Of a stretch of 60,187 nucleotides of DNA, positions 69 to 40,646 are shown one piece after another. Origin of the DNA: Pseudomonadota bacterium. GTDB lineage: Bacteria > Bdellovibrionota > Bdellovibrionia > Bdellovibrionales > Bdellovibrionaceae. The DNA lies in the NCBI GenBank assembly GCA_041178425.1, contig JBEGVH010000023.1:1-60187 (forward strand), given 5' to 3'. The notes beneath the pieces are model-generated. The model did no database searches. It saw nothing but the letters and a program-made list of their open reading frames with translations, and had not been told where the DNA came from. The stretch's first letter is position 1, and every line of letters starts with the position of its first letter. The translations under genes and the position numbers were made by a program.

Positions 69-140
69 AAAGAAAAAGACCCCCACCGCTAACGATGGAG
101 GTCAAAATGACAAACTTAAACCCACAATTTAAGTTTCGGC
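69..140 (-). ncRNA. Putative antisense sRNA over the RBS and start of the 107-220 peptide
   Basis: Minus strand forms a perfect 9-bp stem (112-120/128-136), then an 11-bp stem with two G-U pairs (78-103) followed by a U-rich tract. Ends are approximate. Confidence 0.5.
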
Positions 141-220
141 GTTTTGTGCGAAGAGCTTTAGTGATCTTGCGCCTAGTTTTACTAGTGTGTGAGATCCTGA
201 AGCGCTTTTTCGAAGAGTAG
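107..220 (+). CDS. 37-aa basic/hydrophobic peptide MTNLNPQFKFRRFVRRALVILRLVLLVCEILKRFFEE, putative type I toxin
   Basis: Hand-translated. GGAGG at 97-101 lies 5 nt before the ATG. Shares the GGAGGTCAnnATG context and CTAGTTTTACTAG (LVLL) with the array peptides. Confidence 0.65.
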   Translation: MTNLNPQFKFRRFVRRALVILRLVLLVCEILKRFFEE

Positions 221-35937: not shown

Positions 35938-36272
35938 AAATCCTCTACTTTGTAGAAAGCTTCAAGTGGTCAAATAGTTCTAAGATTAATAAGGCTTAGC
36001 CAAAAATTTTCAACAAGTTTTCTTCGGGGGGGGAGGGGGGCCTGAAAGGAACTTGAGCGTACCACGGGGGTTAGGGAGCAAGTTTTAGCTTTTGGCCGCT
36101 GAGTTGGGAGGGCAGGGCCTCGGTGTCTGCTGGCGAGAAGTGGCCGAACCGCCCTTGGCCTCTCCATGAAAGGCCCCAAAGGGTTTTAAGCCCTATCCGT
36201 TGAGCATCAGGGAACAATAACCAGTGATTTACAAAATCATCCGTTAACGTACCGATTCCACAAACGTGCGAT

Positions 36273-36389
36273 TCAAAAAAGCTGGATCGTTAGCTCATAG
36301 ATCCTAAGGGCTAGTAAAACTAGACTTAAGAGAGCTTGAGCCAGTGTCAAAATATGTCGAATCAGAATTTGGGTTCTCTGATTTTTCAT
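36273..36389 (-). CDS. 38-aa hydrophobic peptide MKNQRTQILIRHILTLAQALLSLVLLALRIYELTIQLF, putative type I toxin
   Basis: Hand-translated. GGAGG lies 5 nt before the ATG. Frame and length are conserved in three units. Confidence 0.75.
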   Translation of the reverse strand: MKNQRTQILIRHILTLAQALLSLVLLALRIYELTIQLF

Positions 36390-36431
36390 AATGACCTCCA
36401 TTTTTTGTAGAATGGGGGTCGTTTCTTTTTT
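36360..36431 (+). ncRNA. Putative antisense antitoxin sRNA, unit 1
   Basis: Hairpin aatcaga/tctgatt plus terminator-like gacctccatt/aatgggggtc and a U-tract. Antisense to the RBS and first codons. 5' end unknown. Confidence 0.55.
36393..36431 (+). terminator. Intrinsic terminator-like hairpin (also 36867-36904 and 37375-37412)
   Basis: 10-bp GC-rich stem with one G-U pair on the + strand, followed by gtttctttttt. Confidence 0.7.
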
Positions 36432-36746
36432 GAGGCCTCAGGCGGTTCAGCCAAGAAGTTGCTATAGCAATATTCGAGTGCCAGTGAGAGTAAGTTATGT
36501 TGGAGATGGGGGACGATGATCGGATGTGTGTCCGGCAGACCTGCCAGTGGCGATCTTGTGGTGAATCGCTCGATTGAATCAGTCAGTCAGGCGGTATGGG
36601 TCTAACACCACAAGTGGCCGAACCGCCCTCGGCCTCTCCATGAAAGGCCCCAAAGGGTTTTAAGCCCTATCCTTTGAGCATCGAGGAACAATAATCAGTG
36701 ATTTACAAAATCATCCGTTAACGTACCGATTCCACAAACGTGCTAT

Positions 36747-36863
36747 TCAAAAAAGATGGATCGTTAGCTCATAGATCCTAAGGGCTAGTAAAACTAGACT
36801 TAAGAGAGCTTGAGCGATCGTCAAAATATGTCGAATCAGAATTAGGTTTCTCTGATTTTTCAT
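36747..36863 (-). CDS. 38-aa hydrophobic peptide MKNQRNLILIRHILTIAQALLSLVLLALRIYELTIHLF, putative type I toxin
   Basis: Unit 2 copy with the same RBS and no indels in the ORF. Confidence 0.75.
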   Translation of the reverse strand: MKNQRNLILIRHILTIAQALLSLVLLALRIYELTIHLF

Positions 36864-36904
36864 AATGACCTCCATTTTCGTAGAATGGGGGTCGTTTCTT
36901 TTTT
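36834..36904 (+). ncRNA. Putative antisense antitoxin sRNA, unit 2
   Basis: Same two hairpins with different loop sequences. Confidence 0.55.
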
Positions 36905-37254
36905 GAGGCCTCAGGCGGTTCAGCCGAGAGTTGCTATAGCAATATTCGAGTGCCAGTGAGACTGTGTTATGTTGGATATCGGGTTCGATGGTCGGATTTA
37001 TATCCGGTAGACTAGCCAGTGGCGATCTTGTGGTGAATCGCTCGATTGAATCAGTCAGTCAGGCGGTATGGGTCTAACACCACAAGTGGCCAAACCGCCC
37101 TCAGCCTCTCCATGAAAGGCCCCAAAGGGTTTTAAGCCCTATCCGTTGGGCGGTGGGTAGGGAACTTCCAAAGAGAAGCTCCTACCCATCGAGGAACAAA
37201 AACACTTGATTTGCAAAATCATCCGTTAACGTACCGGTTCCACAAACGTGCGAT

Positions 37255-37371
37255 TCAAAAAAGCTGGATCGTTAGCTCATAGATCTTAAGGGCTAGCAAA
37301 ACTAGACCTAAGAGCGCTTGAGCCAGTGTCAAAATATGTCGAATCAAAAGTACCTGCTTTTGATTTTTCAT
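37255..37371 (-). CDS. 38-aa hydrophobic peptide MKNQKQVLLIRHILTLAQALLGLVLLALKIYELTIQLF, putative type I toxin
   Basis: Unit 3 copy with synonymous (GCT>GCG, TTA>TTG) and conservative (R>K, I>L) changes. Confidence 0.75.
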   Translation of the reverse strand: MKNQKQVLLIRHILTLAQALLGLVLLALKIYELTIQLF

Positions 37372-37412
37372 AATGACCTCCATTTTTGTAGAATGGGGGT
37401 CGTTTCTTTTTT
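37342..37412 (+). ncRNA. Putative antisense antitoxin sRNA, unit 3
   Basis: Hairpin aatcaaaag/cttttgatt with a compensatory change, plus the terminator. Confidence 0.55.
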
Positions 37413-37668
37413 GAGGCCTCAGGCGGTTCAGCCAAGGTGAGGCTATAGCAATATTCGAGTGCCAGTGAGAGTAAGTTATGTTGGAGATGGGGCACGATGA
37501 TCGGATGTGTGTCCGGCAGACCTACCAGTGGCGATCTTGTTGTGCATTGCTCGGTTCAATCAATCACTCAGTATGGGTCTTAAAACCAAAAGTGGCCGAA
37601 CCGCCCTTTGCCTCTCCATGAAAGGGTGGGCATCATCCGTTAACGTACCGATTCTACAAACGTGCTAT

Positions 37669-37725
37669 TCAACAAAGATGGTGAATAAGCTCATAGATCT
37701 GCAGTGCCAGCAAAACTAGCCTTAA
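37669..37725 (-). pseudogene. 3' half of a fourth peptide copy (LRLVLLALQIYELIHHLC*)
   Basis: Homologous C-terminal half. The 5' half and start codon are missing. Confidence 0.7.
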
Positions 37726-37768
37726 GTTTGCTCAGGCAATGTTTAGAGGCTTGGGGAGCAAAAGGCCC

Positions 37769-37847
37769 ATAAAGTCCGCAGGATATGCGGAGATTATGGG
37801 TTGATTGTGCGGACTTTATCATCTACAATCTCCGTATAGATTGCGGA
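37769..37847. promoter_or_regulatory. Operator-like palindromes upstream of the Fic gene
   Basis: TCCGCA-N5-TGCGGA (37775-37791), TCCGTA-N5-TGCGGA (37831-37847) and a 12-bp IR at 37769-37780/37808-37819. Confidence 0.6.
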
Positions 37848-37855
37848 GAATATTA

Positions 37856-38974
37856 ATGGCTTCGAAGAGATATATTCACGAGTTACAGGGTTGGCCTCAA
37901 TTTGAATGGGATCAACAGAAAGTATCAACCAAACTAGCGGCCGTGCGCCATGCTCAGGGGCGTCTGATCGGTCGCATGGAGGGGCTTGGGTTTCTTTTAC
38001 AAGGCGAAGCAGTTCTCCATTCGATGACAGAAGAGATCGTGAAATCCAGTGAAATTGAGGGCGAAAATCTGAATCGGCACCAGGTGAGATCATCAATTGC
38101 TCGAAAACTTGGTATCGATGCGGGTGGGCTTGTCACAGTTCCGCGACCCATCGATGGTGTTGTTGAGATGATGATCGATGCGACACAAAAATTTTCAAAG
38201 CCTCTAACGCACGATAGGCTCTTTGGTTGGCACTCCGCACTCTTTCCTACAGGCCGAAGTGGAATGCTGAAAATTCGCGTGGGCAGTTGGCGCGACGATA
38301 AGAATGGACCCATGCAAGTTGTTTCTGGCGCAATCGGAAAAGAGAGAGTTCATTTTGTAGCTCCAGCGGCCAACAGGCTTGGCCAAGAGATGAAGAAGTT
38401 TTTAAAATGGTTCAATGGGCAAGAGGCGAATCTCGATTTGGTCTTGAGAGCGGCGATTGCCCACTTGTATTTTGTAACGATTCACCCATTTGAAGATGGA
38501 AATGGGAGAATCGCTCGAGCCATCACCGAAATGGCTTTGGCAAGATCTGAAAACACCCCCCTTCGATTCTACAGTCTGTCTTCCCAGATTATGGCTGAAC
38601 GGAATGCCTACTATAATGTTTTAGAGGCCACTCAAAGAGGTGAGCTTGAGATCACGGCCTGGATGCTTTGGTTCTTGGGGAGTCTTGATAGAGCCATACA
38701 TGGCGCCGAGACGATGCTTGCAGCTGTGCTTGCCAAAGCGAAATTTTGGGAAAAGCGTGGCAACGAAAAGTTCAACGATCGACAGAGGCAGATACTCAAT
38801 CAACTGCTCGATGGCTTTGAGGGAAAACTGACATCGTCGAAGTGGGCCAAGCTTGGAAAATGTTCGCAAGACACGGCTTCGAGGGATATTGATGATCTTA
38901 TCAAGCGTAAGATATTAAAAAAGAACCCCGAGGGTGGTCGAAGCACAAGTTATTCACTACAGCTTGAGGAGTGA
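37856..38974 (+). CDS. Fic family protein (DUF4172 N-terminus, C-terminal HTH)
   Basis: HPFEDGNGRIAR, SSEIEGE inhibitory-type motif, CSQDTASRDI. ATG 37856. Confidence 0.92.
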   Translation: MASKRYIHELQGWPQFEWDQQKVSTKLAAVRHAQGRLIGRMEGLGFLLQGEAVLHSMTEEIVKSSEIEGENLNRHQVRSSIARKLGIDAGGLVTVPRPIDGVVEMMIDATQKFSKPLTHDRLFGWHSALFPTGRSGMLKIRVGSWRDDKNGPMQVVSGAIGKERVHFVAPAANRLGQEMKKFLKWFNGQEANLDLVLRAAIAHLYFVTIHPFEDGNGRIARAITEMALARSENTPLRFYSLSSQIMAERNAYYNVLEATQRGELEITAWMLWFLGSLDRAIHGAETMLAAVLAKAKFWEKRGNEKFNDRQRQILNQLLDGFEGKLTSSKWAKLGKCSQDTASRDIDDLIKRKILKKNPEGGRSTSYSLQLEE

Positions 38975-39437
38975 GTCGGCCCAAAAGGTGTGGTCGAACT
39001 CCGTTTGAGGTTAAAAGAAAAAGACCGATACTTCTCTCATCGAGAAGAATCGCCGATAGCCTCATGCTCTTTGTATCTGCAACTGGAATGACGTACTGGC
39101 CTTCATCCAGAACAATCTCGCTTTCATTTCTTGCGAAAATTTCTAGAACGTTCGGATACACCTCAGCCACTGGCCTCGAGAAACGGTAATATCTTGGGGA
39201 TCCCTCGGTCGCTTCTTTCACTTTGTAACCACCGGTTTTTACATAAGTTGCTATTCTGGAGTTCAATTCATCAGAGGCATTCGTTAAAATGACGAGATCA
39301 ATGTCTTTGGTAGGTCTGAAGTCTAACTCTTGTTCCTCCATTAGAACGGAAGCAGCACTTCCGCCGATAATGGCGAATTGATCTTCGAGACCAGACATAA
39401 AACTGCAAAAATGATCAAAGCCATGAGGTTTTGCCAA
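38901..39437 (-). pseudogene. Nucleotidyltransferase (AbiEii-like toxin), probably C-terminally truncated near 39035
   Basis: IIGGSA...RPTKDIDL motif. Family-like sequence ends at LSAILLDE, then the frame runs into the Fic 3' end. Confidence 0.6.
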
Positions 39438-40463
39438 TTACATGCCCTCCATTTTAATGTCGTGTTCATTAAGCATTTCCTGTAATGAAATTTGCACTCG
39501 ATCGTCCAAATCATTTCTTAATGAAAAGTAAAGTTCTATTGGATTCAGGTTTTCCCTAATAGAAAAGAGTTTTGGGTCTTCTTTCCAGACCTCCATCTTT
39601 ACCTTTTGGTTCCCAACGTGAAGTTGATCCCTTTGTTTAAGCTTTTTGAAGACCTTACTCGTTACAGCTATCGTTTTCTTGTTCGGCGCGGCTAGGTTAG
39701 AAAAATTAGAAAGCGCAGATTCTCCAGCCAAGACATAATCATCCTGTGAAAGGGGTAGATTCTCAATTTCAACGATTCCAAATAGTTTCCCATGAGGGAT
39801 TTTAGCGACCCTTTCCCAGAGCTGTTGTTTGGAAGCAAATCGATATTCTTTGTTGGGCCCAAGGCCCTTAATGGTCAATAGGTCTGCATCGACCAGGCTT
39901 CTAATGGCTTCAGAAAATTTAGTCCGAGAGACACCGCAGCTATCTTTCAACTCATCGAACAGACTTCCCTGCGAAAAAGCCTCAGGAACCTGATCAGTAA
40001 GATAACCACCGATGATCTTCAACGCGAATCCCTTAAGTTCAAGTTGTGCATCCTTAAGCCCTAGCCGCTTGTTTATGGGCGCCGCCATCATTTTGCCAAT
40101 GTCACCCTTCAATCCGATCTCGGGAATGAAAATGGTTTTATCTCTGTAAATGAATGGAATCTTTTCTCTTACCAGCAATGGTCGGAATTTTGGATTAACG
40201 TCATCGGCATTGAGAACTGGGATCGCTCTTTCGCGAAGCCTACGAATAAGTCGCAGAGGATTCATGATTTGCTCAAAGGTAAGCTTTCGCTTTGGCGTAA
40301 GAAGGAGTAATTCATATTGCTCTGGGTCGCCCACACCAAATTGGCAGAGGGTAAAGGCTTGGGTAACATAGATCGGCACCCCTGGAAGCATAAGCCCCTT
40401 AAGTTGGATTTGTTGACCTAAGGCCCCTTTTAAAAACTCTAAAGCTTGGTTATGTTTTGTCAT
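39438..40463 (-). CDS. Winged-helix/AbiEi-like antitoxin-type protein
   Basis: Central wHTH-like segment, LAGESALSNFSNL, NPIELYFSL...DDRVQ. Abuts the NTase gene. Confidence 0.65.
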   Translation of the reverse strand: MTKHNQALEFLKGALGQQIQLKGLMLPGVPIYVTQAFTLCQFGVGDPEQYELLLLTPKRKLTFEQIMNPLRLIRRLRERAIPVLNADDVNPKFRPLLVREKIPFIYRDKTIFIPEIGLKGDIGKMMAAPINKRLGLKDAQLELKGFALKIIGGYLTDQVPEAFSQGSLFDELKDSCGVSRTKFSEAIRSLVDADLLTIKGLGPNKEYRFASKQQLWERVAKIPHGKLFGIVEIENLPLSQDDYVLAGESALSNFSNLAAPNKKTIAVTSKVFKKLKQRDQLHVGNQKVKMEVWKEDPKLFSIRENLNPIELYFSLRNDLDDRVQISLQEMLNEHDIKMEGM

Positions 40464-40617: not shown

Positions 40618-40646
40618 CCTCCATTTTTAGTAGAATGGGGGTCGTT
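40618..40646. repeat. Orphan copy of the array RBS/terminator hairpin
   Basis: cctccatttttagtagaatgggggtcgtt matches 36395-36423 at 28/29 nt. Confidence 0.85.

Follow-up and report, generated by a model that had tools for sequence, protein, structure and literature searches.

Putative type I toxin-antitoxin modules with a FliA-type antisense promoter motif inside the peptide gene in Bdellovibrionales

Introduction

Type I toxin-antitoxin modules are typified by a small hydrophobic or amphipathic protein of under ~70 aa, an antisense gene with its own promoter and terminator, and an mRNA with Shine-Dalgarno (SD) sequestration and/or 5'-3' long-distance pairing, features which in the locus described here are found in the encoded peptide, at the level of sequence motifs and in the predicted mRNA, respectively. 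The closest described system in layout is AapA/IsoA of Helicobacter pylori, which, in the consulted sections of PMC6733600 and PMC8594479, comprises multi-copy chromosomal modules with module-specific repression, an antisense RNA lying within the mRNA span and overlapping the ORF start, an antisense promoter inside the ORF, and an mRNA with a 5'-3' long-distance helix and SD-masking hairpins, all of which have observed or predicted counterparts here. It differs in that no sequence or Rfam match links the two, and, as far as these sections describe it, AapA has 30 aa (38 aa here), IsoA has 80 nt (~60 or ~95 nt here) and the antisense promoter has a TANNNT-type -10 box, whereas a FliA-type promoter motif is present here. 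Hok/Sok shares an untranslatable full-length mRNA with paired ends, but Sok is encoded 5' of the toxin ORF and acts via the mok leader ORF (consulted part of PMC9841398), whereas the RNA predicted here covers the SD, AUG and first codons of the peptide itself; neither a Hok family match nor a tblastn match to the present family in plasmids or phages was found. Ibs/Sib likewise occurs as tandem repeats in one intergenic region and encodes a small hydrophobic peptide, and differs in that Sib spans the entire ORF, whereas the predicted RNA here covers only 6-7 codons (PMC8594479 and PMC2887945, in part). None of the Ibs peptide models and no Sib family of Rfam was matched. The Ibs peptide is also much shorter than the 38-aa peptide. 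TisB and DinQ resemble the latter as amphipathic single helices, with language-model look-alike scores of 0.82 which are a lead only, and the TisB model matched one of 54 family members at E 0.047, short of any cut-off; their antitoxins are encoded 5', without mRNA overlap (PMC8594479, in part).

The modules described here resemble AapA/IsoA in layout and hok/Sok in their closed mRNA, and are members of neither. A preliminary description of this DNA had likened them to both Sib and IsoA, of which the AapA/IsoA-like geometry holds, but the peptide matches no Ibs or AapA model. Fozo 2010, in the part consulted, gives 0 type I loci for B. bacteriovorus HD100, neither the T1TAdb article text nor the supplements covered mention the genus, and neither FliA nor RpoN occurs in PMC11951105. 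In the literature covered, mostly search listings and the opening lines of abstracts of openly accessible papers, no type I system in the group or phylum, no FliA-driven antitoxin and no earlier paper on the peptide family was found.

Each unit is best explained, with a probability of about 0.6, as a type I toxin-antitoxin module with toehold-style recognition, in which a FliA-driven antisense antitoxin of ~60 nt would control a putatively membrane-damaging peptide. The parts of this reading that have support in the sequence are the ORF family, purifying selection, a covarying hairpin (hairpin 1), a plus-strand terminator, an end-to-end mRNA helix and the promoter motif.

Locus layout, peptide and family

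The window, which is the whole 60,187-nt stretch of DNA analysed here (contig JBEGVH010000023.1), carries an array of three units in tandem, each 474-508 nt long, and a fourth, degenerate one. Each intact unit encodes a 38-aa peptide on the minus strand, namely the amphipathic P0001 (36273..36389), with a GGAGG-type SD 4 nt before its ATG, P0002 (36747..36863) and P0003 (37255..37371). The degenerate unit (37590..37770, minus strand) retains the 3' half and has an internal stop in its ORF, and neither a FliA motif nor an SD/terminator hairpin was found in it. The spacer of ~130 nt between units (36480-36610) is conserved across the three units and contains many repeated CAAT/CGAT-like words, which are possible upstream activator sites. 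A Fic/DUF4172 gene (37805-38974, plus strand) directly adjoins the array, and Fic genes also flank the homologues L039 and L048.

Homologous loci were fetched for a subset of the matches described below, yielding 126 distinct ORFs, of which 111 with SD and ATG were used and 15 dropped. A set of 143 was obtained by adding 32 of 62 later ORFs after removal of duplicates; some of the 32 are close kin of three first-set loci and hence not fully independent. The set divides into a short class (18 of 143, including the units of the window) and a long class (125 of 143). The hydrophobic moment exceeds that of the peptide's own shuffles in 143/143 homologues, 135 of the 143 contain a 19-residue window with a mean hydropathy of at least 1.6, and the peptides are strongly cationic (mean net charge +5.4), while a pN/pS of 0.25 over 21 disjoint pairs indicates purifying selection on the peptide; the pairs and homologues in these counts are phylogenetically related. 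The peptide is modelled as a single long helix (pLDDT 85), a cleavable leader is not apparent among its 38 residues, and it is predicted to damage membranes.

The host genome contains 10 SD-led copies on four contigs, one of them with a read-through tail, as well as remnants. Another intact member of 37 aa lies in the window itself (107-220, plus strand; flanks 1-430), whose FliA motif is stronger and which has an end-to-end helix of its own, and near-identical copies of it are found in the same genome (G000 C9:11268-11381 and C32:1323-1490), the C32 copy having a read-through tail. An orphan 29-nt copy of the SD/terminator hairpin without an ORF (40618-40646) follows a glycosyltransferase gene and precedes an AbiEii-like pair (39438-40463 and 38901-39437; Pfam E 0.005, below cut-off). 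In the homologue L019 (783-1565) a transposase-like ORF takes the place of the 5' part and ends just within the peptide gene, apparently through an insertion by which the start and hairpin 1 were lost.

Of 151 genomes of the same taxonomic family, 73 were matched by a 16-row profile, often in several copies. A 54-row profile gave matches in 30 of 44 genomes of a single genus and in 23 of 251 genomes across the phylum, all 23 of them in the window's own order. A DNA pattern applied to all GTDB species returned 24 loci, 24/24 in Bdellovibrio-group organisms; three viral pattern matches are not family members. A profile search of a 5.8-billion-protein collection gave 188 clusters at E 0.001 or better, and the 10 clusters checked were without a name or annotated 'hypothetical protein'. 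For the 54 members no Pfam or NCBIfam family exceeded its cut-off, Rfam gave a single chance-level match (E 0.63) in the window region and none at the gathering score in eight homologous loci, and PDB gave no sequence match under E 3.5 and no fold match. Copies are arranged in tandem or scattered among unrelated genes, pseudogenes are present, the neighbours are unrelated housekeeping and unknown genes, and neither a conserved gene context nor a transporter was found in the 82 of 123 neighbouring frames that were scanned. As judged from these searches, the family is an undescribed one from the Bdellovibrionales (Bdellovibrio-type predatory bacteria).

FliA-type promoter motif within the peptide gene

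The attack-phase FliA (sigma-28) consensus of Bdellovibrio is TTAAG-N16-CCGATA, found at 92 of 140 attack-phase promoters, where TTGAG and TCGA variants exist and the mapped +1 lies mostly 14 nt (13-15) past the first -10 base, as read by eye from Table S2 (Karunker et al., PMC3627812, in the parts consulted); the attack-phase role of FliA is confirmed in the consulted text of PMC12622784. The host genome encodes both FliA and RpoN. A motif of this type, TTGAG-N16-TCGAAT, whose -10 core corresponds to the invariant Arg codon in reverse, lies on the plus strand inside ORF 1 (36336..36362), with counterparts in unit 2 (36810..36836) and unit 3 (37318..37344); the -10 box of the window, TCGAAT, is a weak match. 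The motif shares its consensus, 16-nt spacer and +1 distance with the B. bacteriovorus FliA regulon and its attack-phase small RNAs (APsRNAs); the eight APsRNAs listed are, however, intergenic and by eye none is like the present family, and neither an antisense RNA nor a toxin is reported in the consulted part of that paper (PMC3627812).

The invariant Arg is encoded by CGN in 111/111 homologues, though the host uses AGR for 26% of its Arg codons, a T precedes this codon in 99%, and codons +6 and +7 end in T (90%) and A (87%), so that more than the protein constrains the codon use of the ORF. In antisense orientation, the biased codons read TTTAG or TTGAG, 16 nt and NCGAAA/T. A weight matrix built from 55 own-genome sites exceeds the 99th background percentile in 102 of 111 homologues (mean 46 and maximum 59 after recoding) and in 32/32 added ORFs, but the use of CGA to seed the matrix makes the -10 score partly circular, and in most homologues CGA is also base-paired in the stem of the mRNA, so that the -35 box alone is the fair test. 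At least four of its five positions match in 95 of 143 homologues, against 17.6 (maximum 25) after synonymous recoding, with a sharp register. At the expected start, a pyrimidine-purine step occurs at +13/+14 in 118 of 143, compared with 17-34 at in-phase offsets and up to 68 at out-of-phase offsets; a second peak is found at +12 (59) and +18 (68). The step arises from the chemically unrelated residues Y, Q, C, H, R and W, and recoding cannot test the initiator, as it leaves the step nearly unchanged (117 versus 118). Both signals persist in 32 representatives under 65% identity (-35 box in 17/32, pyrimidine-purine in 28/32). The locus accordingly shows, at the level of motifs, boxes 16 nt apart and a +1 ~14 nt after the -10 start, in a genome with FliA. 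No convincing sigma-70 promoter was found on either strand. The conserved CTA-GTT codons were also considered as a promoter, and are fitted best by a local mRNA hairpin (61/74).

Predicted antisense RNA and terminator

From the motif, +1 is predicted to lie in the loop of hairpin 1, near 36371, 36845 and 37352. The putative antisense RNAs on the plus strand would extend over 36371..36431 (61 nt, start at G36371 +/-1), 36845..36904 (60 nt, start at 36844 or 36845) and 37352..37412 (61 nt, start at the purine at +13). Each consists of a G/U-rich, nearly unpaired 5' tail of 19-20 nt and one terminator hairpin, the weakly structured tail of antisense RNA 1 (~19 nt) being complementary to codons 1-7. 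Sok is likewise a single hairpin with a free 5' tail that initiates pairing at a target loop.

The hairpin at 36390-36423, 36864-36896 and 37372-37404 appears to have a dual use, as a terminator with G-U pairs on the plus strand and as a weaker SD-masking hairpin with A-C mismatches on the mRNA. The GC-rich stems followed by U-tracts that had been described earlier are confirmed, the U-tracts ending near 36431, 36904 and 37412, and a plus-strand-specific G-U pair is indeed present, except that the stem has three G-U pairs and not one. Segments of 77-78 nt on the plus strand have z-scores of -4.6 to -6.3 with 0/200 shuffles as stable, and fold 9-12 kcal/mol worse on the minus strand. In the short class the antisense strand of this hairpin folds better in 17/17 loci, one U-G pair is retained in 17/17, and this invariant pair leaves an A-C mismatch in the SD stem of the mRNA. 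The long class has a predicted RNA of ~90-105 nt with a separate terminator, which is whole only in the antisense RNA because it overlaps the predicted mRNA start; a strict rule of hairpin plus U-tract finds a terminator in only 80 of 111 loci of both classes together. The plus-strand terminator is well supported by these sequence features, and they also support the earlier proposal of an antisense RNA in cis that ends at the U-tract and faces a small hydrophobic ORF, in a type I-like layout.

For the homologue L152, 24 RNA runs are listed, all available as contigs only, and four of them were compared with the locus. In one run a single long contig spans the locus, and the contigs of the other three start at 504, 513 and 574, either level with the terminator or past it, none covering the ORF or the predicted RNA. 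The long-class terminator of L152 (476-515) has A- and T-tracts on both sides, and the low-depth contigs of two studies stop at 504 and 513, which hints weakly that read-through into the peptide gene is blocked there as well.

It is very unlikely that there is no working antisense RNA and that the hairpins are mRNA structure, with the internal promoter acting in transcriptional interference only or being a by-product of codons and stem. Both hairpins do fold on the mRNA, masking SD and AUG, and no short RNA appears in the four L152 runs, which as contigs are uninformative on this point, but the protein does not explain the -35 box, the G-U pair is invariant with the U-tract next to it on the antisense side, and the separate long-class terminator would be broken on the mRNA.

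Hairpin 1

Hairpin 1 is present in every unit as previously proposed, with its core at 36360-36383, 36834-36857 and 37342-37365 in units 1, 2 and 3. The compensatory change is confirmed, as the pair G36365-C36378 of unit 1 is A-U in unit 3, and it is synonymous on both sides (Gln4 and Leu9 unchanged), a point missed in the preliminary description. The loop is also among the most variable parts, as 10 of the 18 positions that vary among the three ORFs fall within hairpin 1 (ORF offsets 11-24), and these account for the amino-acid changes at codons 5-8. Covariation was assessed at seven stem positions, anchored solely on the ATG and the invariant Arg, and 422 of 777 cells are Watson-Crick pairs, against 311 +/- 10 when the arms are shuffled among sequences and 166-310 when they are slid; four of the seven pairs change on both sides among the 17 short-class loci. 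Hairpin 1 is real.

Hairpin 1 alone is silent on which RNA carries it, since it folds equally well on the mRNA strand, where four further pairs mask the AUG. In the mRNA (minus strand; 36353..36390, 36827-36864 and 37335-37372) it would comprise the covarying stem, the AUG-pairing extension and an accessible loop of 6-8 nt. The alternative is the antisense RNA of ~72 nt with two hairpins that was proposed earlier, starting near 36360 and recognizing the mRNA by loop-loop contact. That segment folds well, its hairpin 1 covaries, and a second FliA-like site lies 32 nt upstream in 64 of 143 homologues versus 44.8 (maximum 54) after recoding, but the upstream site is without the CGA core in the window and no sigma-70 match precedes 36360. 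A TANNNT box that would start the RNA further upstream is found in at most 19 of 143 at any tested offset, no higher than the recoded maxima, and the main motif and initiator set +1 in the loop, so that the 5' arm of hairpin 1 would be missing from the antisense RNA, and it would be in the mRNA that the compensatory pair acts. In the lower stem, three positions have G-U pairs that favour the mRNA (62, 89 and 50 of 143) and two have pairs favouring the antisense strand (40 and 21), and folding energies are better on the mRNA strand in the long class (74 versus 31 of 124) but slightly better on the antisense strand in the short class (11 versus 6 of 17), a split that makes polarity alone only suggestive. 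Taken together, hairpin 1 probably belongs to the mRNA, and the two-hairpin RNA of ~70 nt is unlikely.

Fold and promoter of the mRNA

The predicted full-length mRNA 1 (36138..36455, minus strand, ~318 nt) has a 14-bp helix joining its ends (36440-36453 with 36141-36154), in which a G-U pair works on the minus strand only. The predicted mRNA 2 (36612..36928, minus strand) has the same end-to-end helix, and the predicted mRNA 3 (37084..37436, minus strand) has an extra 3' UTR hairpin of ~36 nt (37150-37190), in the place of which a different hairpin is found in two copies on contig C9. These mRNAs fold at z -5 to -6, and in 114 of 138 homologues the end-to-end duplex is more stable than in shuffles by 5 kcal/mol. 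The SD is masked locally, whereas in AapA/IsoA, as the consulted accounts describe it, masking is by a 3' anti-SD; trimming of the 3' end in silico left the SD masked here, its unpaired probability in unit 1 staying at 0.17 over seven trims under equilibrium folding.

In the consensus of sigma-54 promoters, GG and GC are exactly 10 nt apart. About 75 nt upstream of the ATG, GG-N10-GC is present in 80 of 113 long-class loci (neighbouring spacings 2, 17 and 4) and in 4 of 16 short-class loci, and the long-class element resembles a sigma-54 promoter overlapping the antisense terminator tail. The candidate mRNA promoter of the window has sigma-54-like -24/-12 boxes (36467..36483, minus strand) 2 nt wider apart than is usual in the host; canonical spacing was rejected for these copies, as they have 12 nt and host upstream regions favour 10, and their expression may be weak. 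Every own-genome copy inspected (G000 C31, C9 and C32; L021, L022, L023, L012 and L014) has a spacing of 8, 9 or 12 nt, as if the boxes had been detuned.

Copy specificity

Variable recognition sequences serve as specificity domains in Sib, as may the loops here. The first nucleotides of the predicted antisense RNA read precisely the loop of the mRNA, which is open (unpaired probability ~0.9). Among nine own-genome copies the cognate duplex is best, or closely tied, in 8/9 at 8 nt and 9/9 at 12 nt. Within genomes, the first 8 nt differ by 35% between close pairs, 0/32 pairs being identical, compared with 19% in the adjacent untranscribed 8 nt and 13% in the ORF core. This divergence could also reflect relaxed constraint on a loop, in favour of which it is as high between genomes (41%) as within them. 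The earlier proposal of loop-based cognate specificity stands in so far as the loop sequences are copy-specific; units 1 and 2, however, differ at only one of the first 8 nt, with a cognate/non-cognate difference of only 3.8-6.5 kcal/mol, and full 3x3 specificity is therefore doubtful. Copy specificity is plausible on these sequence comparisons.

Proposed mechanism and alternative roles

In the favoured type I reading, the mRNA of ~320 nt would fold with SD and AUG masked, and an antisense RNA would be made from the FliA attack-phase promoter motif within the peptide gene, starting in the loop of hairpin 1. Its free G/U-rich 5' end would pair with the open C/A-rich loop of the mRNA, and pairing would then unzip over AUG and SD, blocking translation, probably followed by RNase III cleavage by analogy with hok/Sok (PMC9841398, in part). 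Changes in the first ~8 nt would insulate the copies from each other. As FliA is attack-phase-specific, the supply of antitoxin would fall after prey entry; the route from there to a translatable mRNA is a gap in the model.

A more elaborate version, possible if somewhat doubtful, has the antitoxin made by FliA and the mRNA by sigma-54 from the promoter overlapping the antitoxin terminator, so that prey entry would disarm the antitoxin and free a membrane-active peptide in the bdelloplast, to act on predator or prey. It would then be the promoter, not the protein, that sets the invariant Arg, the Ala/Thr-Lys/Gln pair and the residue four positions ahead of this Arg.

The same RNA switch might instead serve a peptide that is a life-cycle factor rather than a selfish toxin, silenced in attack phase by the FliA-driven RNA, for example a peptide acting on membranes inside the prey, or a means by which the predator is depolarised for dormancy or exit. 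The contrast in promoter type (a FliA motif on the RNA side and, in the long class, a sigma-54 spacing peak on the mRNA side), the confinement of the family to one predatory order, the strongly cationic and amphipathic peptide and a weak PSM-delta match (1 of 54 members, E 0.01) agree with such a role. It is nevertheless rather unlikely, as the family occurs in no more than 73 of the 151 genomes and, within one genus, in 30 of 44, has neither conserved neighbours, a transporter nor an evident cleavable leader, and shows variable copy number, pseudogenes and copy-specific 5' ends, which suit selfish modules better.

Significance

The family would supply more than 140 natural orthogonal antisense/target pairs and would show clearly how a promoter can shape the protein sequence in which it is hidden. 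An RNA run of a cultured strain contains a homologous locus, so tests are feasible. A FliA-driven antitoxin would tie a toxin-antitoxin switch to a developmental sigma factor, and, if FliA-driven, the modules would have a directly testable role in the switch between attack and growth.
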